Below are positions 5,371 through 64,000 of a DNA stretch of 64,000 nt, one piece after another. The stretch is from a virus. Lineage: Duplodnaviria; Caudoviricetes. Position 1 is the first letter of the stretch. Each line of letters opens with the position of its first letter. The notes beneath the pieces are model-generated. The model had not been told where the DNA came from, did not search any database, and worked only from the letters and a program-made list of their open reading frames with translations. The stretch is from positions 1-64,000 of IMG/VR virus record IMGVR_UViG_3300028833_000067; one strand, written 5' to 3'. The translations under genes were made by a program, and so were the position numbers.

Positions 5371-5745
5371 ATGCATATGACAGTTAATAGTGAGCGCGTA
5401 CTAAATTTTTTAAAGGAACATTATGGTCAGGAATTTTCTAAGAATGAAATTAAGGATGCTCTAGGGATTTCTTTGAGCGCAGTTATTGGTAGTATTAATC
5501 CTCTTGAAAAGAATGGCTATACTCGTATTACTCGTACAGAAGTAGTTGAACTAGAACCAGCAACTGAGACTCGGAAAGCTAAGACTAAGGAAGTTAAGTA
5601 TCATACACTAACTGAAGCTGGCCTTGCCTACGATCCAGTAGCTGAAGAACAGGCTAAGCTCGCCGCAAAGCAGGCAGAAAAGGAACGCAAGGCCGCAGAA
5701 AAAGCAGCTGCGAAGGCCGCAAAGGAAGCAGAAGCAGAATTTTAA
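5371..5745 (+). CDS. Winged-helix DNA-binding protein with Lys/Ala-rich tail
   Basis: RVLNFLKEH...NEIKDALGISLSAVIGSINPLEKNGY...YHTLTEAG (wHTH pattern). Start may be 5377. Confidence 0.7.
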   Translation: MHMTVNSERVLNFLKEHYGQEFSKNEIKDALGISLSAVIGSINPLEKNGYTRITRTEVVELEPATETRKAKTKEVKYHTLTEAGLAYDPVAEEQAKLAAKQAEKERKAAEKAAAKAAKEAEAEF

Positions 5746-27313: not shown

Positions 27314-30300
27314 TTATAGAATAAGAGATTCTAGAGTTTTTACACGAGCGCGTAATTTTTGAATTTCTTTTAATAAAAGAGGAGTTAATTCGGCATAATT
27401 AATGGCTTTATCTCCCTATATATCAATACAAATTTGAGGTAAAAGATTTACTGTGTTTTCATAAATAAGCCCTAAATGCTATTTAGAATCATCATTATTA
27501 TATTTAAAACTTACTGGTTCTAGTTGGTCTATTAAATTATCAGAATAAGTTAAAGGAGAGATATCATGTTTCTTTAAGATTGAGGATGGAGCTCCTACCG
27601 TTCCATTAAAATAAAGTTTTGAAATATTTGTATCAATAGAAATATATCTACCTGTGCCGCCTTCTATTTTACCTATTTTAAACTATAATTGTACATCACT
27701 ATTTTGATTAGACCAAAGTAAAAAATTAAATTGCTATTCTGCTTGCGCAATTATACTATTTTTGCTAAATTTAAGTCCATTTAATGTTCCTTTTAATATC
27801 GAATCTCCTGTTCCTGTAACTGTAAGTGTAGAAGCTTTAATTTTTCCTTTAATTTCAAGCCCAGTTTTTAAATTAAAACGAATCCCGTTCTATGAGTCAC
27901 CCCATTTTGTCTGGTCGTGCAATGTAAAAATTGTACAACTACCTTCATTTTCCATAATCTTCCACACTTCATTATCAGCATCATTAGGTAACCCTAAGAT
28001 ACTTCTCTCTATTGTGTCTGGTAAGTTATTAGGCCGTTCATCGTCTGGACCATATATTCCTATTCCCTCTACAGCGAAAGGATTATCCTTATCAACATCA
28101 TAAGTAGCATTATTTAATCTATCTGTTCTTAATACAAATACGCCCTACCCATTAGTTTCATTGCTTTGCTTACAAGTAATCAAAAGATCACTAGATCGAA
28201 TATTTACACTTGTATTTGACTATATTTTTATTTTCCCTTTGGATGCGACATTTATAGACCCACCGCTAACATTTATAGATCCATTACTATTAACATTTAT
28301 ATAATCCTTAACATTAGCATTAAGCTCATCTGCATCAATTACTAAATGCTTATTACTATATTTATCAATCCAGAAAGCCAAACCAACCGCGGGGTCACTT
28401 GTCTATAAATCTTTTCCTAAAATAAATCCCATAGTATTGACTACATCTTCTGCATCCTCGGTTCCTGCCACACTAGGATTACTTCTTAGATATTTAGACT
28501 ATATTTTTATATTATTAGTATTAAGAGTCAAATCACCCATAGTACCTATATATACACCCTCTTGAGATAATGAAACATATGCTCCACCATAAATTTCCTC
28601 ATCACCTATTTGATTAAGAGAAACTGTATTATATACCCATTGAGTGCCATTATGTACGCTTTTAATATATGTTCCATCTTGCTATTTTACAAGATAAATT
28701 TTATTAGTGTTAGGATTGTCAATAGGCCAAGACTCCACAAATTGAATTTTTCCCATCTATCCTAATTGAATTTTATTGGGCTTAATAGATACAATACTAC
28801 GCGTAGTATTATTTCCAGTAGCTAATCCAATATAATCTTTCTATATCTATACACCAGACAGCATAGCATCTCCAAAATCAGTAATTTTACTACCATTTTG
28901 AGTATTATTTTTAATGCTATTAAGACTTCCTCCAGTAGCTAAAATAATCTATTCTTTTGATAATTCAATAGTAGAAGCCTAATTACTTTGACTCTAAGTA
29001 TCAGCGACTCCTAATAATAAATGTTCAGGTGATAATTCTACATTAGCGCCATAAGACTGCCACAGTAAATTTCCATACTCATCTACTGCCTATTGTCCTG
29101 TTTTAGAATCTATAATAGGTTTATCTGTAGTTTTTCCAGAAAATAATGTTAATTTTTTATTGGAACCAATATATATACCACGCTCTTTATCTATAACTAC
29201 CGCTGAAACGTTCTATTCATCACTTGCCTTAATATCAATTCCTGCGCCAGATTTTATTACAATACCATTCCTACTCGCTAGTACAATTCCATCGCCATGA
29301 ATATTAACATAAGAAGAACTTGCCTATTCTACACCATTTTGCGTTGTTAAAAGAGTAGAAACTAAATTAATTCCACCAGACTAGTCACTTGCTTCTGTTT
29401 TTACAGAAGCAATATTAATAGTAGTACCGCCAATATTAACAGCTTTATTACCAGTAATTTCCACATTATCATTCGCGGCAATAACAATTGTCTTTCCACT
29501 CATTAAATTAATATTAGTAGTATTTATAATATCAATTTCACCGGTTTCTGCATTTAATCCAAATGCAGGCCCTTCTATTGCAGAAACCTTTCCATTATAT
29601 GTAGAAATAAAAGCGCCACCATTGGGATTTCCAGTAGCAACAGAAATACTACCATCATCATGCTTCCATACATCGCCAGCTTTGAAATTAGTAGGTGGTG
29701 TATTTCCAGTATATACTTTTGGAGTAAGCGCATTAACCATGTTCTCCCTAAAACCTGCTAAGATGTTGGCATTCTTAGTTGTCACATTCATTACCGACCC
29801 TAAACTATTTGAAGCAGAAGCTAGTATTTCACCAGCTTCAGTAAATAATGACTATAACTATTCTTGTACAACATTATATCCATCAAAGTATTCTTTTAAG
29901 AAATCTTCCCATACTAGGCGCGTCTATGAGCCACTGCTTAAAGTTTTACGGAGCGCTTCTGGACTTAATGTAGAGTCTATAGTACCTCCTGGGGCTAAAG
30001 CCGAAGCTAATCCAATATTGCGCTCATTTTTATGCATTTCTTCTGTTTCAGCTACAATTTTACTAAATAAGTCTTCAAACTTTGTCTTATAGTTCTTAAC
30101 TTCAATAGTATCCTACTCTTCATGGTCTAAATCTAATGTGATACCAGATATATATCCAAAGGTATTTTTTAATTTAAGTTCAAAGTCATTAATCATGACC
30201 AGTTGCGCGAGCTTGGTATGCAGATTAGTTAATAAGTCTGGAGACCATTTACTTACATCTATTGAATAAGAAACTTTCGGGTAAGCGTTTTCTTTTAATA

Positions 30301-33300
30301 CCTTTTTCGCACTAAGATATATATCAACATCGGTATTAGAGATTTTGTAGTTGATTTTAATACGATCTGTACTCTAGCTAAAATTATCCATGTCTGCTTT
30401 AAAAAGCCATAATACTCCTCTAAATATAACCTCTGGTTTTAAAGTAATTGTATAACAGTTATAAATATTTTGATTTTCTACAACATCTACAACATCTTCT
30501 TCTGTCCATGACTTTAAAGTAGCTGAACCTGTAGAGGTACCAGTACCTGTGGAATCATAATCTATACCTTCGCCTGGCATCATATCTTCATCTTTAATTG
30601 GCCCTTTGGCATTTGCATTCGTGAAAAGTTTTATATTTTCACGGATACTTTTCTCTACAAAAGCTTCGTTTTCTACATCTCCATAACCCATTCTACGATA
30701 AGTATTATTATCAGATGCGGTGAATTCTCCTCCAATTTTTTCAGATAAATAATAAGATTTAGTTAATACATAATAATCTTCATATTCCGTAAGCTACTTA
30801 TCATTAAACTAAACACTAATATTATCTCCTGTTTTTAATTTAAGTGAAGGTATCATTATACGAGGATAGACAAGTTCATTCTTTTCTAAGTTATCTCTTT
30901 CTACCCATTTATCTCCTTTCTATTTAACATTAACCCAACCATCCTCGGCGGGAATTGAATATGTAGTGCTCTTATACATTTTTAAAACTATTTCATTCTT
31001 ATCATTCTCAACAGTCTTCAATTGACATATTTTTCCAGTCTTATACATATTCTACAATTCTGCATCAGATAGCTAATATGCATCAATAAGCACTAATACT
31101 GGCTTAATGCTTAAACCAGTTCTCATAAATGCGATTTTCGCGCGAGAACCTATAGTATAATATTGCATATAACGTAAATCTGTTTCATTGCCTTCTGGCG
31201 GAATAGTGCTTGTGCTAGGATTAAAAGCAAAAACAAATGGTTCTTCTTTATTATTAGTATCCGCCCAACTTCGATAAGCTTCTATAAAAGTAGTAGTTGT
31301 ATCTTTATCATTCGTTAATTTGGTCAAATCAATACAAGGATAATAATATTTATCCTAATTAATTCCCGATTCATAATATAACTTATCTTCACTCTCAAAT
31401 GTAATTGAATCCCAACCTATATTGGCAAAATATTTATCAGTTATATTATTAAAGAATGTTGCTTGTGATTTTGAATACATTTTATATAATGGCAATATCA
31501 TAGTCTCACTATAATTTTTAGTAGACTCCTAATATTCATTTTCAGGCTACCAATAACTTTCGCGCAAGGCAGCACCCATCATATGCTCAAAGCGCGCAAT
31601 CTCATCTTCTTTTTCTTTTACTAATTCATCAATCTTTGCTTTTATATCATCTAAAAATGTCTTTAGTTTTGTATATCTATTAGAATATTTATCTAAGTCA
31701 GCCTTATCTTTATCTAATTTCCTTAACCAAGAATCCTTAATTTTCTCATAATACCAGTCTGGTTTATATTTAAAAGTAGCATATAAACAATTAGGGATTT
31801 CAGTACTATCTGATGCTTTACTACCACGCTTGGGCTTAAGGTTATCATCACTTATAATCTTTTCATTACTGTCTTTATCTGGATAATAGGTTCTACTCTT
31901 ATCCCATTTAACAACACAAGCGCTCTTAAAATAAGTATCCGTCTTTTTTCCTGTAGGTAAAGCCGTTGTCCACTAATCTTTAGTATCAGTATTCACTACC
32001 GTAGTAGGACTATTTGGGTCTTGTGTATCTTTCTTATAATAGACATAATATAGTTCCTTTAATGAACCTTTAGCACTAGTTGGACTTTTAATAGTAGAAA
32101 CACCATTTTTATTATAATAATTAATATAGTAATGATATATAATTTGTCCCTATGGGCAATATTTCTGCTCTTGAGTAATTACATATTTGTTTTTAATATT
32201 GGAAGGATATGTGGTTGATTTAGCATTATCTTTAAAAATATCAATCTAATCTGTTACACCCTTTGCAGAAGTGGGCGCGCTAATTGGAGTATCACTAGTA
32301 TAATATGTATAATAACTACCAGTTTTATTTCGCTTAAACAAACCTTTTACCTTATCTAAATTGCCATATTCATCATAAACAAAAATGCCGCCTGTTATTT
32401 CACTACTATTAAAGAAACTTGCGCTTTCAGCAGAAATAACCGCGTCTATAGTTTTACCAGCCATATCCTTTATATCCGCTTTATCTTTTCCTGTGATATT
32501 ATTTGAAGAAGGATAAGTAGTATTACTTTTATACTTACTAATTTCCCAAGCTGTATAATATTTATAATCCTTTGACATATTATCTACATAAGGAAAATAA
32601 GTAGTCCATTGATTTATTTCATCAGTAGTATAAATTTTAGTCTCATTATTTTTTACCTTATTATAGGTTAAAACCTTTGGCGAACCAGTTGTTAAATAGT
32701 ATAACTTACGTAAATTGGTAATATAATCTGCCGTAGTATTAGCATGGTATCCATATTTATGAGCATTATATTCAATTGTAGTAAAGCCATTTCGTTGTTG
32801 ATGGGTAATTTTTTTAATAATATAAAATCCATTAGATAATTTATTATCAGTCTTAATTTCTGCCCACTCATATTTATTGCCTTTTTTTATTCCAATATAT
32901 AAAGTAATTGTCGAGATATCTTTGTTTTCATCATCTTTTATAAGCTAATAAACCTCTCCTACCATTACATTATTATTGTTTAATGATGTTTTTTTATCTA
33001 TGGTTCCCTTATATTCTAGTATAGGAACCCATATCGTGCCAGAAACAAGTTCCTACATCTTATTATCGCCCGGCACAGAATTATTAGTATTATTTATATA
33101 ATTACTTTCATCTATGGCGCTAAAACGAATTCCATATTGTACAGTATCAAAGCTGGTAGTATGATATTCCTTATATAATTTTAAAGTCTCAGGCTATACT
33201 CCCATACACTTCTCATTCTAATTAAACTACACATAATATGTATCATACTTAGAATTAGAAGAATCTTTCATTAAAGCCATAACTTCAGGATTACGATAAT

Positions 33301-35242
33301 CTCGTGTAATAAAACCATCACTATCGCCATCGGCACTATCAAGCCCCGTAATAAAAGCCATATTTTCTGTAATTCTTTCTTCATCTAATTTAATTGACTC
33401 TTCTAGAACTTTATTCTTAGCTTTTACTTCTACTAAGACATCACTAAGATTCTTCTAAGCATTCTATAATGGCTCTAATTGGCTATTTAATTTACGCATC
33501 GTTTTTTCGTATTCTGAAATCTCATTATACTATTCCTCACTAATAGTCCCAATATCATGTAAGTAATCAAAATTCATTACATAATCTTCTTTAGTCTTAT
33601 TAGCTTCACTATCCATAATATTAATAGTTCCAGTATATAAATCTGGCGCGTCTACCGAACGCACAAACATTTTAGTAGAAATATCAGTGCTATCCATTTC
33701 TCTTGTAATTTTAGACGCAGAATTAGGATACATTAAAGTTTCTACATTTTCTCTTTCCTTTAAGAAATTATTATAGAATACAATAATGCGCCCAATTATA
33801 TTATAATTCCTATCATATAGATATTCATAGCGGCAAAAAACTTCAAATTTTTCCGCTAAATCCTAAGTTATATTATATAAGTTGCTTTCTTTTAAATCAA
33901 CTACGCGAGTCATTTCCTATAATTGAGAATAAGACGCGGGCTAACAATCATCTGTCCAGCTGTCAACATAACTTTCTACATAAATTTTATCTTCAACTAC
34001 CTCACTAGTATTAAATAAACTATCATGAGATATACGAATGTCATAATACCACTCTGTAGGATTCAATTTATTAGAATCTATTATTCCATTTGTCTTTGGA
34101 ACTGGTTTAATACGCGCACCATTCGCATAGTCTTCCATCCAATACTATAAATTACATATAGGCTATGCTGCAGCTTTCGCTTCTGCATCAGCATAAGTTT
34201 TATCAGTACCAACTTCAGCTTCCTGCCATTCATTATAAGCATTGTAAAATCCTTCAGCGGTTAAAGCACGTTTATAACCAACTTTTCCTAATTCATGAAA
34301 AGCCAATCCTTCGCAACTAACAGTACATATTAAATTATCCTATTCATGACTTTCTTCGACTTTAGTAATAAGAAATTCAAATACATTTGAAGTAAAATTC
34401 TTATAATAATTCAAATCGTCTGAAGAGAATATATCCCCTGTTGCTTTTAATTGTTCATATTCGTCTGCTAATACATGTAACTATTGAGCCCAAACTGCTT
34501 CTTTTTCAATGGTAGTATCCGTATCATATTTAGCACGAATAATCAAACCCTATGTATCCTTTAATAACAAATCTTCAATATTAGTAGGGTCTTTTTGTAC
34601 TAGCGTATCAACATATGCTGCTAATCCGCTCGTATCTATCGTCCCATTTGAACTCATAGTATATAATAAGTTCTATCCATTTTGAGGTATTGGTGTAAGA
34701 GATACAATCATATTTCCAATAGTATAGGTAGTAGTTAATAAAGTGAAATAACTGCCGTCCGCATTATGAATAATAGGACGATTCCATAAATCTACATTTC
34801 CATTTGCTGTATTAAAATATTCAATAATTTTAATTTTCTATTGAACGTTTGCGTCTTTTTCAGCCCATTTATTAAAAATAACTTTTACTTTCCGCATACT
34901 AGTTAAAATATTTCTATTTATTTCTTGCGTTTCTCCCAACTCATCCTAATAGTTTGAACCATAGTAAATATTATGTGTACTATACCAATTCGGATTTTCT
35001 ACTTTTTTCCCATTTATAAATAAATACATAGGTACTTCAAAAGTAAAATTTGATGTACCATCAATATTCAATTCCATTTTTGCGTTTTGAATCTATCCAG
35101 TAGCCCTTGCCTGCGACCAAACGATCGCAGGCAAGTTCTCACCGGAAATAGAAATTGGATCACCACTTTTTAAAGTGGCGATATAATTATCTTGAATTGT
35201 CCATACAGATACTTCATAGTTTCTAAATTTTTTCCAATCCAT
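27314..35242 (-). CDS. Giant tail-tip protein: Tal/baseplate hub, fibre and C-terminal S74 intramolecular chaperone (TAG=Gln), ~2642 aa
   Basis: AAGGAGG SD. Six track fragments share the frame. C-terminus SSILKKHDI...LEPVSFKY...LGLIYE...INYAELTPLLLKEIQKL. Follows Dit. Confidence 0.8.
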
Positions 35243-35266: not shown

Positions 35267-37243
35267 TTATAAGTACATATATTTATATTCTAATTGTATA
35301 TGAGAAATAGGGGCTGGCAGATTGTGGAATAGACAATGTGAATAAGTTTTAGTTATTTCATTTGTTTCTTCCCATCTGGATACTCTACCTTCACTATTAA
35401 ATTCATTTTGGTCTTCTATATATAGCCAATTGGAGCGTAGCATATCTCCTACATTTTCTGTATGAGTTTTAAAATATTTTTCTTTATCTGCGCTTGTAGC
35501 GCCATCGCGTAGAACGTTATTCTCTATATTATTATCCTTTGCTACAATTTTATCAATTATATTAGTAGTACTACTATCCGATTGCCAATACTAAAACTCA
35601 CCAGTTGCTATTCCTCTTTCTGCATCAAAAGTAAAGCTCATTGAAGAACTGGGAACATTATCCCATCCGCTTATGCCATCATCCGTTGTATGGCCATTAA
35701 AGAATCTACGTAATAATTTTCTAAAAGCATATACACCAGTCCCAGCAAACTATCCATTTTCTTTAAAATATTTATAATATTTTGTTAAGGCTAAATTTGG
35801 ATTGTTATCTATATTATTGCTGTCAGATTTATTATTCTTCTATAAAAACTCCATAATAGAAATAGTAAATGCTCTAACCGCAGGATGCCTAATCTAATCA
35901 CGTAGTGTATCAACAAAATCTCGCCAATTTGGTTTATCGTCATCAGTCATTTTCCCAACTGCCTTAATCAGCGAGAGAGCCTTATTCCAACTAGTAATTA
36001 TATTAGGAGTAGTAAAATCAAATTCTTTAGTATGCTAACTCATAATTGTAATTGTAGAATAATCTTTAGCATTACTATTCCCTTTCTCAATATTAGCAAT
36101 TGAATTAGCAATTGTATTAATAGGGTTAACTTCATTATTCTCTACACTAATCTAAATAGGTACTGTAAACTTCAAAATAGTAGGACTTGGCGCATTGCCG
36201 CCATAGAAAAAGTAATATTTATTATCAGAACCCGCGTATAATTCGCCTTCTATTGCATATTGATTTGTTTCATATTCTAATGATGCCCCAGCAATGCGGC
36301 CTTGTGCAACAGCAACATGTGGTTTGTTTTCTTCAATTCGTGCGCCTATCCAATATTGTATTTCTCCATTTTCTTCTGTTATAAAATGTCCCAAAGTATT
36401 ATCTTTCCAGTTGCTAGGACGAGTACTGCCATAATTCTACGCAATTAAAGAATAAGCAACACTACTCTGTACTTGTGCAAACTATGTACCACCAAAATGC
36501 ATAGTCGAAGATACTAAATCCTATATTGGAACAGTATCTTCATAAGCAATTTTTAATGCTTCAGTTAAGCTATCAGAAGGCTATCCGCCTATCTCAAAAC
36601 CCGAAGGCAATGTAATAAAACCAGTTTCTTTATCACGAGTAAATAAATTACTTTTACCATACCAAAATGAGGAATCTGAGACAAAATCTAAATTAATAAA
36701 TCCTCGATAAGTAGTTGTACTTGTATTGAAACTCTAGCCCCCTAATTGGACTTGAATTTTTTTCTCAAACGGCATAAGATTATCTAATTCCGGCGGCGCC
36801 GATACTCGCGCCATAATAGCACGATTAGGATGCTCTGCTAAAATCAATTCACGCGTAACTCCACCGCGGAACCAGTGTAAAAATCTATCTAATTGCCGCT
36901 AATCTAAATCATCAGATACGAGTTTTAAACTTAAAGTGAAAGGAGAGAAGTGAGTTCCATGATAATACTGCCCATCCATTATATCATAGTCAGTAGTTAA
37001 ATCTTGAAATTCTGAATATCCATTACGAGAAATTCCATCTCCATCACTACAAGCAATTAAATCAAAATCTTCTATCTTTTTTCCGCCAAAAGAAAAGCTT
37101 ATAAAGGAGCGCTGACGCGCGGGGAGGAGAACCTCCCCGCGATGCGTCACCTAATAAACCTAAGTATGTCTAACTGCTTCATTTATAATATTTGATGTAC
37201 TAACACCATTTAAACTCCCATAATCTGCGTATATTGTTGCCAT
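35267..37243 (-). CDS. Distal tail protein (Dit-like) with insertions (TAG=Gln), 658 aa
   Basis: SFISFSFGGKKIEDF...DGQYYHGT...ELIFAEHPNR, C-terminal EYKYMYL. Directly after the tape measure. Confidence 0.75.
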
Positions 37244-52991: not shown

Positions 52992-53894
52992 TCAAATATC
53001 CCCGTCATCTGGTTCCCCTAAACGAGTTATTTCCATAATTAAATTTTTCTAATCCCCAACTGTTTCTGGCAATCCAATGATATTAAAAGTAGAAACGGTG
53101 GGATCGGCCCTTTCTCCCAGTCGTAAGTTAATATTACTTACAACCCTAACTTTCGGCATATACAAAATATTTGTATAATTTAAACCCTCATTTTCATCCT
53201 TTGAGTAAAACTTTGCTTCAAGCGCGAAAAGACCATTAAAACGTTCTTTTTGCACACTATAAATCAAGGCTTCGTGCTCATATTTATAGTAATAATCAAT
53301 CGTATATTTCCTATTATTTTCTACTGGCTCTTCAAAATTTTTATCCTTGGCTAACATAATGCGCCAATGGTCTGAATCATTAGCATCAACTACACTTATA
53401 TCCTTTCCATAAATTTTATTCTAAATTGTATCCCTATCATAATCAAATATGAATACTTTTTTAATTGGATAATTTACTGGTTTATGCTATAGCTCTACAT
53501 ATGGAAACTCTTTAATTTTTCCTTTAATTTCCTAAGATATAGTATTTTCAGCTAGAATTGATTCTATCATATGTACATACATAGGTTGTCTTTCTTTCTA
53601 TGATAAAACATTCGCGCCAAGTAAAATACTCATACCAACTGAAGACATTACCCCTTCTGTCATCTAAAACTGAACTTCGCCTCGCTCATCCCAAATAATG
53701 CGTGGCATATTTGCCCAGCCGCCGCGCGCGAATACTGGTCTATTTGATTCAGTTAATAATGACATATTCACATTATTAAAATATAGCACTGGTTCGTCTG
53801 CTTCAATATAACGTTCACCAAAATACATTGGCGCTTTCGCGCGAAGAGTTACCTCATAAAGTTCTTTATGGCCAAAATTTTGATCTAATATCAT
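52992..53894 (-). CDS. Minor tail-tube paralogue (TAG=Gln), 300 aa
   Basis: Joins two track fragments. Colinear similarity to the major tail protein (FGHKE/YGIKE, ARGGW..IIWD/AQGGW..IQWD, SNINL..DPT/SNVTI..DPS). Confidence 0.75.
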
Positions 53895-53909
53895 ATACTA
53901 TCACCACCT

Positions 53910-53943
53910 AAAAAAAATAAAGGGCTTCCCGATTGGGAAGCCC
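53910..53943 (-). terminator. Intrinsic terminator after major tail protein
   Basis: GGGCTTCCC/GGGAAGCCC stem plus U-run. Confidence 0.85.
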
Positions 53944-53955
53944 ATTTATTCTTAA

Positions 53956-54957
53956 TTAAGGTGTTCCACCTTCGGAAGAACTAGAAGCGGCTAAAGAGCC
54001 ATAGTCATTACCACTCTGAGAAGCAGAAGCTTCATCAAGGTTATAACGAACTAGCTTCATCATTTCATTCTGGCCAGCTTCATTGGTAGAACGAAGTACA
54101 TTTAAAGTCATTTCAAATGTGGAAGGATCGCCTTCTGCCTGTAGGGTAATAGTAACATTGCTCTGTACCTTGGCCTTGTTAATGATGAACTGGAATGGTT
54201 CATCCTTACCGGTCTTTTCAGAACGCATGAATGTATCACCAACTACACGATAGGTGCCAGGGAAAGTATCTGGACTAATAGTTACTTCAACTGCACTCTC
54301 ATCGGTAGTAGAAGAAGTTACTACATCTTCCCAGAAAATACGAATCTGATCGCCTTCTACTGGGGCAGTTTCTTCATCAATACCAGCGGCAGGATTCTTG
54401 AACTTAATATTGTTAAGAGCTGTCATTACCTTAGCTGCTCCATTTGGATCATCTACTACAATCTGAGTACGAGTACCAGCTGTAGTGCTATTCATACCGC
54501 CGCCTAAGTTAATTAGACGAATTGGATGACCAAATGTGGCCTTAGGATATAGTACCTTTTTAGTTAAATGATCTACTGGAGCAGGAATAAGACCATTAGC
54601 TTTAGCTACAACCTGCTCAGTATGACGTACTATAACGGTCTCGCCTTCAACATTAGTCTTTTTAATAGCGCCACCAAGCATAAACCGTAAAGATTCTATA
54701 GACATTAGAGCGTCTTCTAGAGTAATATTGATTTCCTTACCATAGTCCCACTGAATTAGTTTTGGATTTCCCCAACCGCCCTGAGCTGCGGTATTTTCAG
54801 CAGTGGTTTCAATGGTGGAAACTTTTAGGGTATCTAGGAATAGAACGATGTCACCGGCATATACACCAGCGGCAGAGTCATTATCTAGAGCTTCAAAGTA
54901 AACGTTGGCTACTTCTTTTATGCCATACTTATCAAAAATATTAACGTTACTTGCCAT
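53956..54957 (-). CDS. Major tail tube protein
   Basis: Position, AAGGAGG SD, high-expression codon usage, GGWGNPKLIQWDYGKE and AEGDPSTFEM motifs, followed by a terminator. No TAG. Confidence 0.8.
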   Translation of the reverse strand: MASNVNIFDKYGIKEVANVYFEALDNDSAAGVYAGDIVLFLDTLKVSTIETTAENTAAQGGWGNPKLIQWDYGKEINITLEDALMSIESLRFMLGGAIKKTNVEGETVIVRHTEQVVAKANGLIPAPVDHLTKKVLYPKATFGHPIRLINLGGGMNSTTAGTRTQIVVDDPNGAAKVMTALNNIKFKNPAAGIDEETAPVEGDQIRIFWEDVVTSSTTDESAVEVTISPDTFPGTYRVVGDTFMRSEKTGKDEPFQFIINKAKVQSNVTITLQAEGDPSTFEMTLNVLRSTNEAGQNEMMKLVRYNLDEASASQSGNDYGSLAASSSSEGGTP

Positions 54958-54971
54958 AAGAGTTACCTCCT

Positions 54972-55745
54972 TTATTTATCAGAACTGGCAATGGAACGCA
55001 TCCAATGCTTCAGCTATGATTTGTTAATTTTAGCGCCAGCAAGGGCTGCTTTCTAATTTATATTAAACTAATCACGCCAGCCCATCCGCTTTAACTAATC
55101 GTGAAAAGCATAATATGTAATATCCCAAATATTATGAATATTTAGGCCGCAATCATTAAGAGCCATGCTCCCAATTAAATCAGATAATTTTAAATCTGAA
55201 TCTTGTCCACTTTTCGCTTTTGCTTTAGCCTTACGTACTTTTTCACGATTTATACGCATTTGCATTTTTATGCGTTTAGTTATTGGATCATCATCATCAT
55301 TAATGATGATTTCCTCTCCTTCCTATTCGATAAAATACATGCGCCGTAAAATATGCTATAAGTCTTGAAATTGTTTTTCCTCAAGAATATGCTTGTCCTC
55401 TACGGGCCCGATAATTATCTAAGGTGGATCTAAAATAAAAGTAACTTGTGAATGCGTAAAAAAACGAAAAGCAGATTTTAATAAGGTGTTAATTGATGGG
55501 TCTAGAGTAGTCATAAGTAATAAATACTAGAAATCTGTAATTTTTTCTAATAAATTATTTAATTCACTATCTCCCTAAAGATCAGTAGGTTTATCAGAAG
55601 TTAATATACCTAAATATTTCTAAAAATTTTCATATCCAACATCAACAATTTCACCTAAAGTTGCAGGATAAACTGCACATATATCTTCTATAAATACTGG
55701 ACTACCTTTTAGAAATTTTAAAACTTCATTATCAGTTAAATTCAT
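54972..55745 (-). CDS. Tail-associated hypothetical protein, possible assembly chaperone (TAG=Gln), 257 aa
   Basis: MNLTDNEVLKFLKGSPVF...IWDITYYAFHDQLKRM...AALAGA...KHW. Absent from the track. Confidence 0.7.
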
Positions 55746-56238
55746 TAATATTATATTGCATAGTATAGCCGCCTATTTGTGAAGTAAAAACATTTCGATC
55801 TGCTCTTACAAACTATAATGTTCCAATTCCAGCCATTTTCGCGCCATTAAACATATTATCAATTTCTTCCATAATAAGATAAGGACGTAAAGATTGCCCA
55901 TTTAGAACCCATTCATCGTAAGGGCAGGCAATATCAATACCTATTGTATCCAATTTAAAATCAGGATTTATAATATTAGTTGTAAAACTATTAAATAGCG
56001 CGACTATATATGAAGTTTTTTCTGTACTTTCATCCCAAATTTTTGGGGTGATCATAATCTACTTATTAAGAAGCGAGATGCCATCTACGTTCTAATATTT
56101 TTCTTCATCAAAAGGATCACGTACCTAGTATTTAAGAAGTCGACATAAGCGCTAATTAGACATTAATTTATTTGCTATGTGAAAAGCATTAGTTCCCATC
56201 ACAGCAAATCTACGCTATGTAATTTTTTCAGTTGCCAT
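55732..56238 (-). CDS. Putative tail terminator/completion protein (TAG=Gln), 168 aa
   Basis: NQRLCRLLKY...LRPYLIMEEID...GIGTLQF, position before the tail tube. Confidence 0.65.
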
Positions 56239-56248
56239 ATAACTCACC

Positions 56249-57499
56249 TCACCATAATGGAATAATATCTACTGTTTTAGTATATTCCTCGCCTTGATAA
56301 GTTGCAATTAAAACAACTGATCCTAATTTATTTTTTGCATTAGCATGAAGAATATATTTATTAGAAATTTTTTCCCCATTATCATCTAATGCTTGTGTTA
56401 AAGTAGCATAATCAGAAGGTGGCCTTTTTGCATGAGGATCTTCTTGAATCTCGAAAGTAACTTCTTCATTATTAATAGTTCCATCATCAGTTACTAAACT
56501 ATATGATTCTTTACGATTAAGCCGCAATTTATCTGCTCCTTTAATATATGCAACCAATTTAGTTTCAATAGGATTAATAGTAATTTCAACTGTCTTTGTA
56601 ACTGCGGGCCGATTCTTTAATTGCATTGTAATAATACATTGGCCAGGACCAATAGCCTAAAATGTATCATCAATAAAATTACAATCATCTGGTTTAATTA
56701 AATTAATTTCCCACTAATTTAATGTACCCGCTTCAAACTTAGGAACAATCTAATCTCCAACTTTATATAATGTTGGTAGTTCAGGAAATTTATATTTATC
56801 TGTTGCGGCAACATCTAAATCTCTATCATCATACTAATAATTAACTTTACTTTCTGTTAATGACATATATACAATTCCCTCAACACTAGTCCAATCGCAT
56901 TCAATCACGACCCAACCTTCATTTTCAATAATAAAAGTGACTCCGCGCATTAATTCATCATAATCCGCACTTCCTTCTTTAAAAGAAGGCCGCGGCATAA
57001 TAATTTCCGCAAATTTATTTGGCTGAGGAGAAATTAAGCTGTGCCACATTCTAAAATTTCCCTTTACTTTACTATCTACTGAGCTAACAGCATAAGCCCA
57101 AGATTTATGTAAATATCCCTCAGTATCAATCCATTTTAACTCATAATTGCATTTAATAATCTAAAATGTCTAATATTGTTCATGCACCTTATGTTCTTTC
57201 TATAATAAAAGCCATTTTTCAATAGCTCCATTATCTTGTCTCCATGTAAGTATGTCTCCAACTTGTATTGGTATATCAAGCGCAACATACAAATACATGA
57301 TTTTCTTTTCTTCCTTATCTTTATTAGTTTGAATTATACCGCTGAAATATAATCCACGTTCTACAGATAAGTCTTCAATAGTAAAAGCAGAACGAGCCAT
57401 CCATTTTTCAAAAGCTAAAATTCCGCTATTTTTCATTCGGTCTGCATATGTTTCTCCAAAATGATTAACACGGGAAAAGTAAACATCAAGGTAATTCAT
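56249..57499 (-). CDS. Putative head-closure/neck protein with C-terminal Ig-like domains (TAG=Gln), 416 aa
   Basis: Three track fragments in one frame. IQVGDILTW...WLL...IIKCNYELKW. Confidence 0.65.
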
Positions 57500-57821
57500 T
57501 AGGCATATTTAAGCCACTTACTAAATTAATACATTCAAAGATGGTTTTTCTAAAATGTTCATAAGATAAATATTTTAACATTCCCATCTTCCCTCGAAGT
57601 GGCCACCAGTTAATTGAATTAGCCCCAAGGCCATCAATTTCAATTTTTAATGAATCTAAAAACTTTTCCCATTCTCCATCTTTTTCGCGCTCGCAAAGAA
57701 GCCCATATAAACGCCCTTTTAATTTATTTTTATATCCATCAAATGTAGCATTAGCTATGCTATTTTTTTCCTGCTAGCTATCTAAAGATTCCTGCAGGGG
57801 CGTGTCCTCTAGATTTATCAT
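57486..57821 (-). CDS. Small neck-region hypothetical protein (TAG=Gln), 111 aa
   Basis: ATG 57821 with GAAGGAG upstream, one TAG. FDGYKNKLKGRLYGLLCERE...FRKTIFECINL. Start uncertain. Confidence 0.6.
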
Positions 57822-58242
57822 AATCGTCTTTTGCTCCTTCACATTCTATAGCAACTCTAGCTTCCATATCATTTAATTTATCTAAATGATTTGCGGCAGA
57901 AAAATCTTTTGAAGTATATAATTGACCGATATGTTCCCAGCTTGCAACGCAACGTTTAATCCATTCATGCTTCATATATGTAGCAAGTACTTGGATTTCA
58001 GCATTAGTAAGCTCTTCTTTAAACTAATATATTTTTAATTGTGAAGAAGTCTCAGAATCTTCAGCGGGAGATACTTCTTCATAATCTAAACTCACACGTG
58101 GATATTTAAACCGAGCAATGGCCATTTTGAGAAGTTCTTGCCAGTCTCGTTCTACGATAGCTAACTCTTCTTCTAATGTCCACTCGTCCGCGGTTATGCG
58201 TGCGAGAAATGCATCATAAACTTTTAAGAAGGGTGTTGCCAT
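57751..58242 (-). CDS. Putative head-tail adaptor (TAG=Gln), 163 aa
   Basis: MATPFLKVYDAFLARIT...LTNAEIQVLATYMKHEW...KDFSAANHL. Two track fragments in frame. Confidence 0.7.
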
Positions 58243-58248
58243 TTTTCA

Positions 58249-58689
58249 TCACTTCTCTTCTGCGTCATGCTTCGCGGCAATAGCCTGAATTACATCAACA
58301 TCGCAGTATTTTTTAATTAGGGCCACAATACCCGCATTGGTGATCTTATGCTCTACAGCAAGAGTAACGGCACTTTCTTTTTCTGCATCAGTCGCATGTG
58401 GAATAAACTTAGCAAATGCAGTTACATCACCTTTAACTAACATCTTTTCAATTTCAGAAGCTTCAAATACATTTTCAACAACTTCTACTTGTTTTTCTTC
58501 TTCTAAACCATTAACCTTAATATAATGTCCATTAACAAGAGACATAAATCCAGTATCAAAAGTCATTTCTTCATATTCCTCATCACTGACTGGAATCTCG
58601 CGTCCTGGCATTAATTCACGATTAAAACGAATAGCCGGAAAATATAATGAAACTAAACTTGTACTAATATTTTTAATTGTAATAGCCAT
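58249..58689 (-). CDS. Hypothetical protein following major capsid protein
   Basis: 146 aa, AAGGAGG SD, no TAG. Confidence 0.75.
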   Translation of the reverse strand: MAITIKNISTSLVSLYFPAIRFNRELMPGREIPVSDEEYEEMTFDTGFMSLVNGHYIKVNGLEEEKQVEVVENVFEASEIEKMLVKGDVTAFAKFIPHATDAEKESAVTLAVEHKITNAGIVALIKKYCDVDVIQAIAAKHDAEEK

Positions 58690-58712
58690 AATTGTTCCTC
58701 CTTTTATCTCCG

Positions 58713-58749
58713 AAAAGAAATCTGGGAGGGAGGGATTACCTCCCTCCCA
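58713..58749 (-). terminator. Intrinsic terminator after major capsid gene
   Basis: TGGGAGGGAGG/CCTCCCTCCCA stem plus U-rich tract. Confidence 0.8.
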
Positions 58750-58761
58750 TTATATTACTAA

Positions 58762-59862
58762 TTAGTTAGTAATTGTAGTATTTGCCATTAATGCTGTATT
58801 TTCGGTTTCCCAACCACTACCCTGAGATAGTGCAGCATTGTAATAGATACCCCAATAGTTAGGAGTAGTAAATAGACCAACGCCAACCTTTACATAACCC
58901 TGTAGTACAAAGCTATTATCGCCCTCATGGTCATCCCACTCACGGAAGTAAGGAGAGCCTTCGAAAGCCATCTTAATAATCTTTTCCTTGCCAGCAGGTA
59001 GTACATAAGCAAAGGCAGGATTGAACTGTAGCTTAGTATTGGTTTCATCAGTCCAAGACTGTGGCATTACAACAACAGGAGTGCCATAGAACTTGCCAAT
59101 GTAACCACGATCACGGATTTCTTGCATATCAACATCAGATAGCTTTACTGTAGTGGTACTATTAACATTATATACTAATGCATTTACCATTTCAGCCGCG
59201 AACTCAGGAGTGCAATAAATAATTGGGCTGCCATAAGGAGCAACAGTGTTGCATAGTTTCTTCATAGCAGTAGGATTGAACTGATTGGTTGCAACCTTGT
59301 TGCGAGCTGGACGGCCAGCAGCATTCCAAGAATTGAGTAAGCAACCCTGAACCATTTCAAATAGACGATCAACAATACCTTCCTGGATGACTTCATAAAT
59401 ATCGGTCATGGATTCTAGACCATCGAGATAACGCTCGAAGTCTACATATCCAGCACCACCAATGGCCTGAATATATAGATCGAAACGATCACGATCTAGA
59501 CGGAAGGTTTCATAGTTACCAGATTCAGTGGCGCGAGTAACGAACTGCTTACCACGAATCTTGCCGCGAGTTACACGGAACTCTGGGCGCTGGCCCTGAG
59601 CATAATTCTTTACTTCAACGAACATATCAAGAGCACTCTTGACATTCTGTGGTAGAACTTCCTGTAGATTTTCTTCTAGTAGTTCAAATACATCTTCTTT
59701 ATTACGATTGAAGACGTGACGATTGAAGTGTACGCCATCCTTTGTCATTAGCTTGGCTAATTCATCACGGAGAGCGGCTTCATAATCATAATTTTCTGCT
59801 GCGAATTCAGCAGGAACGGCACGACCAAATACGCCGTTCATTAATACATGTAGCTTATTCAT
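58762..59862 (-). CDS. Major capsid protein
   Basis: About 366 aa, GGGAGG SD at 59871-59876, optimised codons, position after scaffold/decoration, GYIGKFYGTPVVVM. No TAG. Confidence 0.85.
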   Translation of the reverse strand: MNKLHVLMNGVFGRAVPAEFAAENYDYEAALRDELAKLMTKDGVHFNRHVFNRNKEDVFELLEENLQEVLPQNVKSALDMFVEVKNYAQGQRPEFRVTRGKIRGKQFVTRATESGNYETFRLDRDRFDLYIQAIGGAGYVDFERYLDGLESMTDIYEVIQEGIVDRLFEMVQGCLLNSWNAAGRPARNKVATNQFNPTAMKKLCNTVAPYGSPIIYCTPEFAAEMVNALVYNVNSTTTVKLSDVDMQEIRDRGYIGKFYGTPVVVMPQSWTDETNTKLQFNPAFAYVLPAGKEKIIKMAFEGSPYFREWDDHEGDNSFVLQGYVKVGVGLFTTPNYWGIYYNAALSQGSGWETENTALMANTTITN

Positions 59863-59877
59863 AAGTCGCACCTCCCA

Positions 59878-60480
59878 TTATCCTAGACTTACAATCTGAT
59901 ACTTAACGCCCTTTCCGCCGTTAGGTATAGTGTAGTATTTTACAACCTTTGCATAAGTGCCAGACTGTGGCTTAGTAGCAGTTAGCTGTGGAACAGGACT
60001 ACCAGCTACAGGAGCAACATACATAGGAGTAGTATCAATAGCATTTAATGCTGTCTCAAGAGCAGCAAAAGTAGCATATGTAGATTCATCATACTGTAAG
60101 CAGTTAGTGGTTACAGTATCGCCAAGACCAAAGATACCAACACGAGGATAATCCCCAGCGATCTTGCGGCCAAAGCGTTGTAGACCATAGTGTTCACGGT
60201 CATATTCTTTTTCTGTAGTATAAACAATACCAATGGGAGAATCGGTTGCAGCAGCAGGAGCATTAATAGCGCCAGCGGCCTTATCAGCAACAACCCACAT
60301 ACCATTTTCACAAGGATTGGCCTTGGTGAAAGCAGCTCCGAGAGGAGTCTGAGAAACTACCATACCAGTCTTTGGGAATGCTACCTGGTTTAGTTCTAGG
60401 CTGGCATATAGCTTTTCATCGGGATCACGATGCTGATCAACTAGATCGCCCACAACATTAGTAATAGGAAATCTTGTCAT
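59878..60480 (-). CDS. Capsid decoration/minor capsid protein
   Basis: 200 aa between scaffold and capsid. LELNQVAF, ENGMW, GDTVTTN. No TAG. Confidence 0.65.
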   Translation of the reverse strand: MTRFPITNVVGDLVDQHRDPDEKLYASLELNQVAFPKTGMVVSQTPLGAAFTKANPCENGMWVVADKAAGAINAPAAATDSPIGIVYTTEKEYDREHYGLQRFGRKIAGDYPRVGIFGLGDTVTTNCLQYDESTYATFAALETALNAIDTTPMYVAPVAGSPVPQLTATKPQSGTYAKVVKYYTIPNGGKGVKYQIVSLG

Positions 60481-60493
60481 AGTTTATTCCTCC

Positions 60494-61138
60494 TTAGTTC
60501 TTGCGATATTTTTCCATAAATAACGCGAATTCATCAACAACGGGTTCTGGTAGTGGAACTACTTTGTTGTCAGCACTGCCAGCCATGTGTTTATCAGCAT
60601 AGCAAATTGCGAGTTTGCTCTTTAATTCATCAAGACTGAAATTATTCATTTCTTCACGAATTGGGCTGATTTCTTCCTCAGTTAAGTCAGTTGCGAACTG
60701 CTCAATTAAGGCATTTTTTTGTTCTACTTCTAAACGAGTGCGCTCGGCTTCATAGGTAGCAATCTCATTACGCAAGGTAGCTTCAGTCTCAGACGCGGAT
60801 GTTATCTGGGCCTCAAGTTCTTGAATACGAGTTTGAGCATTCTCATAATTAGTAGTCATTTCATTTAATTGATTCTCAAGCTCAGCGATACGAGCTTCAA
60901 AATCGGGTGCGGGTTCAGCCGCGGGTTCAGGCTCCGTAGCAGCTGGCTCTGCGGGCTCAGCCGCAGGTTCAACTGATTCAGCAGCAGATTCATCAGCAGC
61001 AAAATCTTCTGCTGGCTCTGCGGCTGGCTCTGCAGCTGGTTCGGCCGCAGGCTCCACTGGAGCTACTGGCTCCTGATTTACAGGTTCTTCCTGTACAGGA
61101 GTGGGTTCATTTACTTCGGGATTTACAACATTTTCCAT
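60494..61138 (-). CDS. Nested in-frame scaffolding protein, 214 aa
   Basis: Internal AGAAGGAGGGG SD just upstream of ATG 61138 (MENVVNPE...). Confidence 0.65.
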   Translation of the reverse strand: MENVVNPEVNEPTPVQEEPVNQEPVAPVEPAAEPAAEPAAEPAEDFAADESAAESVEPAAEPAEPAATEPEPAAEPAPDFEARIAELENQLNEMTTNYENAQTRIQELEAQITSASETEATLRNEIATYEAERTRLEVEQKNALIEQFATDLTEEEISPIREEMNNFSLDELKSKLAICYADKHMAGSADNKVVPLPEPVVDEFALFMEKYRKN

Positions 61139-61798
61139 TTGATGTTCCCCTCCTTCTGTTGGTTGTTTTTCAGCCTCTTCAACTTTAGCCTTCAAATCAG
61201 CCAATAGAGAAGAGAACTTTTCATATTGAGATGTATATGTATCATCATTCTTACTAAAGAAAGAAGATACAGAAAAACATGGTTCATGATCACCTATAAT
61301 ACATAAACCCATGATTTCAGCTTTGGTATAAACAAAATATTCAGTGTTATCAATATTTGCCCAATCGCCTTCAATTGAATTTATATCAAGTTCCATAGAT
61401 TGATGTTGTCCAATTACAAAATTGGCTTCATTGAAGTATTTAGTAAATAATACTACAGAAAAAACAGCATAATCGCGTTCTATTCCATCAGTATCTTTAA
61501 ATGGCTGCCAGCCATCAAACTATTCAACATAACCATAAGCGCTCGCAAGAGTTGGACCTGTATGACTTGCCCAACCTTGAGATTCAGGATCAAAAAATCC
61601 AACTACTGGAGTATCACCCTTAGTTGCGCTATTAATTAGCATTTCTGCAACATCATCCTTAATATAAGAACCATTGCGATTGCCATATTTAGTAAAAACG
61701 CCAACTTTTAATCTATTGAGGTTAGAAGAACCATTGATAGATTCAGCAGGAGACATTATAATAGCATTATCAAAATAAATAGGAATATTTCTTTTCAT
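60494..61798 (-). CDS. Prohead protease-scaffold fusion (TAG=Gln), 434 aa
   Basis: A single TAG (61520-61522) joins two fragments. NRNGSYI...QSMEL...GLCIIG..EPCF, then acidic PAAE repeats and coiled coil. Confidence 0.8.
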
Positions 61799-61814
61799 AA
61801 TATAATTCGCCTCC

Positions 61815-63359
61815 TTAACTCATACTATCAATATTTGCTTGCGTTTTTTGCGATCTATCTTCATCAGCAAGCGTTGGTCTTCCGCCCTTATTAGTGATGT
61901 CTTTCGGCTAACCTGAACTACTACTATTTTTTTCTCCAGAATTATTTTTTTTCTGAGAATTTTCATCACCAGATTGTGTATAAGATGATGATAATGGACG
62001 CATTTTTTCGCCTAAGTTTAAAAATTCATTTTCAAAGTCTACTGTGCTTACTAAGCTGCGTTGTTTAATTCCCATCGCAGCAGCAACACGCATTCTTGGA
62101 TAACCAAATTGCGCCATTGATAAGTAGTAATCTTTATAGTCTTTAATATTAAATTTTGTTACTGGTAAAATTTCAAAATCAAAAGTTAAACCTGTGCGAC
62201 TAAAGCGGCTATTAATTAAGAATTTAATCCAAGTAGCATATGCGTTCATGTATTCTTGCATTACGCTTTCTAAACGTTTAATAACATATGCTAAAGATGA
62301 ACTATTATCTGCATTAAAGAATAATTTACTACTTCCTAAAGAGTCCCATGCATTATCACTATATTTTTCAATACGACTATTTGCCTAGTTAGCTGCGGAG
62401 GAATCTTGTAAATTTTCTAATGTTGCATCTCCAAGCGTTGTTAATACATCTACTGTATCTAAGTCTTGTAGCATTGCGGCAATTCCAGCATGAATTTCCG
62501 CGATTTCATCTAATTCAAATACTAAATGACCATTGCTATCAGTAGGCATTTTATGAATTAATAACTTATATAGTTCATTTTCATCGCGCTTTTCTTCACG
62601 CTTTACAGCATCTTTCAATTTAGCAAGTTCAGGGATAGATGCTACAAGTAATGGTGTAGTGTCTTCTGAGAAGCAGAAAACAATTCCACCCGCACTTGCT
62701 GGTACCATTATCCATGGATCAGTTAATTTATTCGCCTTATATAGTTTCCATCCTTGTTGAATAGCAGGCGGGAAATTAAGTAAAGCAGCATCACGTATTT
62801 TCTCATCTTCATATTTAGTTAAGAAATAAGTAATATTAAACTCTAAAATACAAAGATTATTAAAGTCTTTTAATCGTGTGCGGCAATATTCCTATGGTAA
62901 ATCCTATACAACCACTTTATTACCGTGTTCTTGTAGAATACCATAATATATCCCCGATTTTAACCATTCGCGCGTAATACGTGTCAATGTATTCTTAATA
63001 TCTAAAGCTTCAACAAAACTACAAGCATTATAGAATGCTTTTATAATTTGCGTTTTAGAACCTTTACCAGTTTCATAGATAGGAGTTACTAGTGTTTCAT
63101 ATAAAAAGAGTGTTGCAAGAAAATTGATATTATTGCGGTAGCGACCATTTGTTCTATAATAATATCGAGATAATTCACGAATAGCTGAAATCTCACCAGA
63201 GCGAATTATTTCTTCTATTTCTTCTATAGTGAAATCTCTATTAATTACACTATTCGTTCTATGGCCGCCCCAGCGAGAGAGGCGTTCACGAGAATCAATA
63301 GGAACATAATTAATACGGAACTATGGTCTTGCAAACATAGCTTTAAAATCCTAACTCAC
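61815..63359 (-). CDS. Portal protein (TAG=Gln), 514 aa
   Basis: GTG start after AGGAGGTG. IRELSRYYYRTNGRY, QDLPQEYCRTR, PLSSSYTQSG...GGRP. Lies between terminase and protease. Confidence 0.85.
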
Positions 63360-63364
63360 AAAAA

Positions 63365-64000
63365 TCACCTCCTACTTTTAGGAGTAAAGAAACCAAATGA
63401 ACCAATATTCTTTTTTCTGCGTTTAAAAATTTCTTTATCTTCATAATATTTAATTCTATACATCGCATATTCTAGTGCGCTAAAACGGTCTTTTTCAATT
63501 GATTTTGAAATGCGTTCGACTTTATATTTATTCTCTACGCCAGTGGGCTTTAGCCGCAAATTGTTAAGTTCATCCATAAGACGAGAAGTCATTTCATATG
63601 GTAATAAAAATACTCGTCTATCATATGATGTCATTCTCTAACCTTTTTTTGTTTTAATTAACTTATCTTTAACAACACGTTCATGCGCCAAAAAAGAAGT
63701 TGATCCGTTATTAACAGCAGTAAGAAATGCCGCATGAATTTCATCTTCATTAGAGGCAGAAGCTTTTATATCGTATATAATAGCATTATATTTAATATTA
63801 GGTTCTTCCACTTCATCATGCATTTCTGGCGGTAAGTGGTTCTCATTATTAAAGGTGAAGTATGCGGGAAATTGTTCTCCTGTTTTTGCGTCAAAAGAAG
63901 GTAAAACCATCGCATCCATAAGACCGATACCTGGGCCGTTACCATCAATAACAATCTCTTTAGGATGATATAATTCAATTAATTTTTTAATACGTGGCGC
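63365..64000 (-). CDS. terL: Terminase large subunit, C-terminal nuclease part (partial; TAG=Gln)
   Basis: IVIDGNGPGIGLMD, KDRFSALEYA. One TAG at 63638. Directly upstream of the portal. Confidence 0.85.

Follow-up and report, generated by a model that had tools for sequence, protein, structure and literature searches.

Avoidance of the reassigned TAG codon in the abundant virion genes of a recoded phage, probably a mark of translational selection

The viral record IMGVR_UViG_3300028833_000067 (Caudoviricetes) is a single phage contig of 176,887 bp with a CheckV completeness of 98%. Its first 64 kb (positions 1 to 64,000), referred to here as the window, hold a virion module in which TAG is read as glutamine. 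The late genes for the major capsid protein (MCP), a 200-aa protein encoded next to it and the major tail tube protein, here called bulk genes, are free of TAG, as are a nested scaffold and a gene for a 146-aa protein, while most of the remaining late genes are rich in it. This purging of TAG is probably the outcome of translational selection against a costly synonymous codon for glutamine, and not a form of stoichiometry control. The best reading of the evidence is that the TAG density of a gene reports its expression level and does not control it.

Most genes on the plus strand of the window (1–27.3 kb) are open when read with the standard code, and the large ones have no TAG. On the minus strand (27.3–64 kb) lies the virion module, where reading frames are open only with TAG as a sense codon, and where every late gene then terminates in TAA or TGA. 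The assignment to Gln comes from alignments of recoded with standard-code relatives, the latter having Q at 46.5% of the positions opposite a recoded TAG; P(TAG|Q) stands at 14.4%, and the value is at most 1.6% for every other residue. Default aragorn and Rfam tRNA searches returned no suppressor tRNA(CUA), and the intron mode of aragorn places an intron-containing tRNA(CUA) at 140729–140991 of the genome, with a group I intron inside the gene (RF00028, E 1e-7, under the gathering score). Domain searches of the 98%-complete genome found no release factor (RF-1 domain) and no glutaminyl-tRNA synthetase (GlnRS) or class Ic synthetase domain. A simple model of standard early and recoded late genes does not predict TAG-free bulk late genes. 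The sequence-only reading had remarked that ‘late’ does not simply equal ‘recoded’ here, and this is correct, the abundant late genes being TAG-free. The features of the late module, from the portal gene onward, are:

61815–63368, minus strand: portal gene, 517 codons with a GTG start, 6 TAG, unbiased codon usage (phrog_2739, E 7e-69)
61139–61798, minus strand: N-terminal part of the head-maturation open reading frame (ORF), codons 1–220, presumed protease, 1 TAG (codon 93)
60494–61138, minus strand: putative nested scaffold, codons 221–434 of the 434-codon ORF (60494–61798), 0 TAG
59878–60480, minus strand: 200-aa gene, decoration protein by position only, 0 TAG, CAG 7 : CAA 1
58762–59871, minus strand: MCP, 369 aa, 0 TAG, CAG 13 : CAA 1
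58723–58749, minus strand: intrinsic terminator hairpin right after the capsid gene (11 bp, 8 of them GC, followed by a T-run)
58249–58689, minus strand: 146-aa gene, 0 TAG, 2 Gln codons, intermediate codon bias
57751–58242, minus strand: 163-aa minor head-tail gene (p163), 3 TAG
57486–57872, minus strand: 128-codon ORF (p128), 2 TAG close to the 5' end
56249–57499, minus strand: 416-aa minor virion gene (p416), 7 TAG, N-terminal 240 aa conserved and C-terminus variable
55732–56307, minus strand: 191-aa virion structural gene (p191), TTG start, 7 TAG (phrog_6123)
54972–55793, minus strand: 273-aa gene (p273) upstream of the tube gene, 11 TAG, the top TAG share
53956–54957, minus strand: major tail tube protein, 333 aa, 0 TAG, CAG 10 : CAA 0
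53922–53943, minus strand: intrinsic terminator hairpin right after the tube gene (9 bp, 7 of them GC, T8)
52992–53894, minus strand: minor tube gene, a paralogue of the tube gene (p300), 6 TAG, CAA-rich, unbiased codons
52965–52986, minus strand: terminator-like hairpin immediately 5' of the tape-measure start codon
37249–52947, minus strand: tape measure protein (TMP), a giant ORF of 5232 codons, 125 TAG
35267–37243, minus strand: 658-aa distal tail gene (p658), 14 TAG
27314–35242, minus strand: 2642-aa distal tail gene (p2642), 56 TAG

The genes for MCP, the 200-aa protein and the tube have no TAG among 32 Gln codons (14, 8 and 10, respectively). Since TAG makes up 47% of the Gln-like codons (TAG, CAA and CAG) in the TAG-bearing late genes of the window, this absence is improbable, the chance of a zero being 1.4e-4 for MCP, 1.7e-3 for the tube, 6e-3 for the 200-aa gene and 1.5e-9 for all three. 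For the nested scaffold, whose 8 Gln codons in the window include no TAG, support comes from the relatives as well. These four, together with the 146-aa gene, had been named as TAG-free in the sequence-only reading, and the window and the relatives combined confirm it, with the qualification that the zero of the 146-aa gene is non-significant from the window alone (P 0.28). The contrast extends to paralogues, the major tube gene having 0 TAG against 6 in the adjoining p300. Over all minor late genes of the window the ratio TAG:CAA:CAG is 237:229:38, and the TAGs are spread evenly along the genes, with no enrichment toward the 5' ends (p 0.49). The base following TAG was considered as a read-through context signal and rejected; it differs from the base following CAA but not clearly from that following CAG, which indicates a dinucleotide effect.

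The pattern also holds among relatives, for which 80 IMG/VR genomes (L001–L080) with an MCP identity of 62–99% were compared, 48 of them recoded and 32 with the standard code. Synteny is constant among them. In the 48 recoded genomes there are 2 TAG in 17,227 MCP codons, 1 in 9,658 codons of the 200-aa gene and 3 in 10,049 of the tube gene, compared with 0.8–2.9 TAG per 100 codons in the minor genes. The 146-aa gene likewise has a low share, with 6 TAG in 6,373 codons and among 134 Gln-like codons (44 genomes). Capsid and tube genes rich in TAG occur in none of the relatives, neither gene ever holding more than one; the highest count for the 200-aa gene is one among recoded relatives and two overall, the latter in L077, whose locus is classed as standard code. 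The ratio TAG:CAA:CAG in the minor genes of the recoded relatives is 1353:1598:447, and TAG/CAA is 6/186 in the bulk genes as opposed to 1353/1598 in the minor genes (odds ratio 0.04). TAG is thus depleted about 25-fold more than CAA in just those genes where CAG, its mutational source, peaks. The 32 standard-code relatives have the same gene order and no sense TAG in the minor genes; they use TAG to terminate genes, the 416-aa homologue among them. In a quick IQ-TREE tree of the capsid protein, recoded and standard-code genomes interleave and the code state switches at least four times. The exclusion of TAG from bulk genes is seen in each of 14 recoded groups and is replicated in at least four independent recoded lineages. 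In one recoded clade of 31 genomes, which spans MCP identities down to 75%, TAG accounts for 4 of 832 Gln-like codons in the bulk genes versus 899 of 2044 in their neighbours.

The TAG-free genes also differ from the remainder in their general codon usage. CTA is used for 58% of Leu (9% elsewhere), AAG for 79% of Lys (23%), TTC for 62% of Phe (17%) and CGT for 74% of Arg (37%), while CAG supplies 94% of Gln and NCG codons are nearly absent; the shifts are significant for Ala, Phe, Gly, Ile, Lys, Leu, Asn, Gln, Arg, Ser and Thr. On a bias index calculated over 190 ORFs of the genome, with each gene left out in turn and Gln codons excluded, MCP ranks first, the tube second and the 200-aa gene third. 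The early plus-strand genes are equally TAG-free but lack this bias. The same split between bulk and minor genes occurs in the 32 standard-code relatives (CAG 73–77% vs 10–25%) and is therefore independent of recoding. Moreover, the bias index of a gene in standard-code genomes predicts its TAG share in recoded ones (Spearman −0.89, p 4e-5, 13 gene units), also after removal of the top three genes (−0.77, p 0.009), with the scaffold part and the 146-aa gene intermediate on both scales. TAG density is inverse to the amount of protein needed, as the sequence-only reading had put it. The tRNAs of the phage, clustered at 142–154 kb of the genome, include Leu(UAG), Arg(ACG) and Gly(GCC), which fit the preferred CTA, CGT and GGC/GGT, and Gln(UUG) and Lys(UUU), which do not fit the preferred CAG and AAG.

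A comparable change is found inside a single reading frame. In the 434-codon ORF of 44 recoded genomes, TAG makes up 12–30% of the Gln-like codons over residues 1–200 and only 1–7% beyond residue 200, where the codon-bias index rises. This step adjoins an internal ATG with a strong ribosome-binding site, which in the window is codon 221, preceded by an AAGGAGG Shine-Dalgarno sequence; coiled-coil-like matches extend over residues 290–390. These features fit a predicted nested scaffold as the ORF's C-terminal part. The N-terminal part, the presumed protease, has no match by sequence to a protease family or structure.

In the minor genes, TAG, CAA and CAG swap with one another between relatives in the manner of synonymous sites, and about 50% of TAG positions are kept at 95–99% MCP identity. 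The TAG share is flat among minor genes regardless of likely copy number, at 0.3–0.55 family-wide, and reaches 0.7 in single short minor genes of the window. A bound on termination is given by the tape measure. Its homologues in complete standard-code relatives consist of one open frame each (3373–5615 aa), and so the ORF of 5232 codons and 125 TAG is one protein. If at least 1–10% of ribosomes complete it, the computed termination per TAG is at most 1.8–3.6%, which implies a read-through above about 96–98% at each. Under this bound the loss is at most 10–20% for the portal gene with its 6 TAG and 18–33% for the gene with 11 TAG, and it is less than 1.5-fold for a typical minor gene. The composition of a virion requires a capsid-to-portal ratio of about 80 to 1, so that TAG, costing the portal no more than 20%, cannot be the chief setter of stoichiometry. 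As a selective cost, on the other hand, losing a few per cent at every such codon of the costliest infection products is plausible.

Expression signals of the conventional kind are present throughout the module. The three hairpins (after the capsid gene, after the tube gene and before TMP) are conserved in recoded and standard-code relatives alike, and the post-capsid terminator has a median minimum free energy of about −26, as against −8 to −15 after other genes. The strong AAGGAGG site is paired with an ATG start at the tube, 146-aa and 200-aa genes and at the protease-scaffold ORF, as well as at the distal tail genes p658 and p2642; at the capsid gene a related GGGAGGTG site is found. Weak sites, or GTG and TTG starts, are found at the portal gene, the 163-, 416-, 191- and 273-aa genes and the tape measure. 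A promoter scan of 52.8–64 kb returned 47 sites where 44 were expected, giving no evidence of separate promoters for the bulk genes. Frameshift extensions beyond the stops of the capsid and tube genes were looked for and discarded, as no open frame follows and the hairpins resemble plain terminators.

Under the interpretation favoured here, the TAG density of each gene would be a balance between mutation and selection. AT-biased mutation would convert CAG to TAG as readily as to CAA, and in weakly expressed late genes TAG would drift up to roughly the level of CAA, about 45% of Gln codons. Each of the two codons lies one AT-ward transition away from CAG, and they occur with equal frequency here, as would be expected under neutral AT pressure. 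In the bulk genes and the internally started scaffold, selection for efficiency would fix CAG, AAG, TTC, CTA, CGT, GGC/GGT and ACC, and would remove TAG still more strongly than CAA. The additional cost of TAG may lie in its reliance on a single intron-split suppressor tRNA(CUA) that would have to compete with the host release factor 1 (RF1). Stoichiometry itself would be set conventionally, by terminators, by strong versus weak ribosome-binding sites and by the internal start of the scaffold.

The sequence-only reading had assigned the TAGs a more active part, with RF1 taking some of the ribosomes at each TAG, such that the number of TAGs down-tunes the minor genes and helps to set the stoichiometry. 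TAG share and presumed copy number are indeed inversely related, in a conserved manner, and a suppressor tRNA that depends on splicing, in a phage with neither a release factor nor GlnRS of its own, leaves room for incomplete decoding. Such attenuation is nevertheless very unlikely. The standard-code relatives build the same virion module without any sense TAG; where TAG occurs, its positions are unconserved and show no 5' clustering, its share does not vary among minor genes of differing likely copy number, and its frequency close to that of CAA is the neutral expectation. The 125-TAG ORF caps the loss at about 2–4% per TAG, hence the ceiling of 20% for the portal where about 80-fold is needed, and the conventional controls are both present and conserved. 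Read-through that is, by inference, nearly complete makes the effect one of ordinary codon bias. Of the proposed competition between RF1 and the suppressor, what stands is a plausible source of the cost of TAG; as a device for lowering the output of minor components it is unsupported. An even more distant prospect, barely credible overall, is that history accounts for the pattern, the capsid and tube genes being TAG-free through recent exchange with standard-code phages or through a different mutational regime. The interleaving of recoded and standard-code genomes on the MCP tree and a raised G+C over 58–62 kb would agree with this. However, the old recoded clade of 31 genomes keeps the contrast, synteny is constant, transfer hardly explains the step between protease and scaffold or the contrast between the tube paralogues, and the raised G+C stems from specific preferred codons and not from a uniform shift.

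A further possibility, also raised in the sequence-only reading and unlikely in our view, is a timing gate, in which bulk subunits are made before the suppressor is available and assembly begins once the TAG-containing portal, protease and tape measure genes become translatable. The early plus-strand genes are TAG-free, as the published code-switch model expects; the suppressor gene requires removal of an intron, and scaffold could be produced from the internal start while translation of the protease aborts at its TAG. In its broadest form the TAG-free set would be a code-independent ‘bulk regulon’, translatable before the intron-split suppressor matures, with the nucleators triggering assembly later. 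This version is improbable; if true, the genetic code itself would be an assembly timer. The causal claim is unsupported, since the standard-code relatives share the bias split and no gate is needed to account for it. The bulk genes are strongly biased where the TAG-free early genes are not, the relation of TAG share to bias is graded and not all-or-none, and natural genomes tolerate an occasional TAG in the MCP, tube, 146-aa and scaffold genes. In addition, the bulk genes lie among TAG-bearing ones on the same strand with no promoter signal that stands out, and early release of ribosomes at TAGs upstream would presumably have a polar effect on the bulk genes.

Several points weigh against selection on codon efficiency as the explanation. 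The description of the bulk genes as highly expressed is a prediction from protein identity (capsid, tube) and from the codon bias itself, and TAG-free bulk genes are the prediction of rare-codon avoidance and of a timing gate alike, so that the two are only partly separable by sequence. The preferred codons may or may not be optimal for the tRNA pool of the host. The bound on termination presupposes that a reasonable fraction of ribosomes completes the tape measure. A Ro60/TROVE-like RNA-binding protein gene (156857–158380) and an RNA ligase gene (162694–163911), both on the plus strand in genome coordinates, outside the window and near the tRNA cluster, have 27 CAG to 1 CAA; they use CAG almost throughout and are TAG-free, yet modest in general bias, and the CAG preference is therefore not limited to virion genes. 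Finally, MCP genes of crAss-like phages carry recoded stops (Yutin et al. 2021, PMC7886860), so that exclusion from bulk genes is not universal among recoded phages.

The identities of MCP, portal and tube, as given in the sequence-only reading, were verified. For MCP, an AlphaFold model built from a deep alignment has the HK97 fold (pLDDT 90.4, pTM 0.85), and Foldseek matches it with probability 1.00 to many phage capsids, HK97 Head II included. The deep alignment is needed, a version from 14 close homologues (pLDDT 44) being unusable. No named match came from searching Pfam, PHROG names and PDB with the MCP sequence; Pfam PF27364 is the family listed for its homologues, and the likely true start is the ATG at codon 4. 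The tube protein matches phrog_2729, has a profile match to solved tail tube proteins in PDB (E 0.004) and is 34% identical (E 1e-27) to proteins annotated as major tail proteins in Tsamsa-like Bacillus siphophages; its gene lies ahead of the tape measure, as in siphophage gene order. Its paralogue p300 matches the same family (phrog_2729, E 2e-17) and, by BLASTP, the major tube protein (E 5e-8). The remaining labels (adaptor, closure, terminator, Dit, Tal, protease and decoration) were not confirmed by any family search. Family searches returned no function for the 200-, 146-, 163-, 273-, 416- and 658-aa proteins, the 146-aa protein having a weak match to phrog_15541 only.

The claim that low-copy neighbours all carry TAG is right in its counts, with most of the role names unconfirmed and with two further qualifications. 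TMP, p658 and p2642 (27314–52947) fall outside the segment from 52,992 to 63,359 to which the claim was attached. The two TAGs of p128 may both be located upstream of the true start; the ORF overlaps the preceding gene by 122 nt and is without a clear ribosome-binding site. Of 27 standard-code relatives, 15 have an in-frame TAG in the homologue at the residue-33 position, and p128 may have an unusual start or involve a frameshift. The tape measure acts as a ruler of about 0.15 nm per residue, and the size of TMP implies a tail of roughly 0.5–0.8 micrometres.

Two extremes of codon usage were noticed elsewhere in the genome. The next-strongest codon bias belongs to two adjacent genes of the early arm, 5371–5745 and 5782–6684 (both plus strand), with CAG 17 : CAA 0; one of them is helix-turn-helix/GcrA-like and the other matches phrog_2367, a family with no assigned function. 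Their products are probably very highly expressed non-virion proteins. The highest TAG density of the genome is found outside the window in a helicase-like gene (genome 92496–94163, plus strand; weak DEAD/Helicase_C matches), which has 28 TAG in 555 codons, TAG being 80% of its Gln-like codons.

Known systems offer several points of comparison. In phage lambda (C/Nu3) the scaffold is nested inside the head-protease gene, with an in-frame internal start and its own ribosome-binding site, and a coiled-coil-rich C-terminal scaffold made in higher copy. The arrangement here is alike, although the nested scaffold is a prediction from the gene sequence and the N-terminal part a presumed protease. 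Leaky termination is used for stoichiometry in the Qbeta A1 read-through protein and in retroviral gag-pol, where a stop is likewise decoded as sense in a structural gene of a virus. In those cases a single conserved stop leaks, at a few per cent read-through, and both products function, whereas the phage has hundreds of unconserved TAGs that need almost complete reading. Closest in kind is translational selection on synonymous codons, as in classical codon-bias theory. In a ciliate, genes with high expression likewise make less use of reassigned stop codons (PMC10553269). There, as here, the top-expressed genes use a narrow codon set, the reassigned stop is the most avoided and the effect is graded. 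The phage differs in that the change of code relies on a suppressor tRNA of its own in the course of infection, in the near-absolute exclusion from three or four genes with a step inside a single ORF, and in the possibility of calibration against standard-code sister genomes.

Among recoded phages, late structural genes have been described as the recoded class, with capsid genes unmentioned (Borges et al., bioRxiv 10.1101/2021.08.26.457843), and for crAss-like phages stops in MCP were taken as a marker of recoding (Yutin et al. 2021, PMC7886860). The phages of these two studies share with the present one TAG as Gln, a phage-encoded suppressor tRNA and a code state that flips between close relatives. 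Early genes free of TAG and late structural genes full of it are shared in part, the late genes of highest abundance forming an exception here. Of the optional accessory factors of a code change, the present genome encodes neither RF2 nor a matching aminoacyl-tRNA synthetase. A 2026 survey of jumbo phages reports no preference by protein type. Phass-1 (phAss-1; OQ749652.1), which with its relatives forms the ‘Caudoviricetes code 15 clade’ (PMC10607447), is one of the cultured kin and also a siphophage with TAG as Gln; it has homologous capsid (35% identity), tube and head genes, but is distant, comes from the human gut and has a 136-kb genome. Its capsid, decoration-position and tube genes have 0 TAG and prefer CAG, AAG and TTC, with neighbours holding 6–25 TAG; the paper on it reports TAG-bearing TerL and tape measure genes and leaves the TAG-free capsid and its bias unremarked (PMC10607447). 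The deposited annotation (OQ749652.1, 26241–51089) splits the recoded genes into short coding sequences for ‘hypothetical protein’, and reading TAG as sense fuses these fragments into long ORFs, one of which has 1880 aa and 25 TAG. Homologous capsid and major tail proteins also occur in large siphophages of Firmicutes (the Bacillus Tsamsa/PBC2 group, Lactococcus phages and the Enterococcus EF1/EF5 group), which have genomes of roughly 135–170 kb and the same head-tail gene order. Unlike the present phage and its IMG/VR relatives, they are cultured; they use the standard code, and the tape measure here, at 5232 aa, is far larger.

The usual picture is one of standard early genes and recoded late genes, in which recoding regulates late expression, and this family departs from it. 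The phage is a well-replicated case of known codon-selection behaviour and involves no new mechanism; its pattern points to recoded codons in structural genes as tolerated passengers at measurable cost rather than tuning devices. In uncultured recoded phages, TAG share and codon bias are usable together as a proxy for expression and can expose hidden internal starts, such as that of the nested scaffold. The presence of recoded and standard-code sisters in one family permits a clean test of whether recoding is adaptive.

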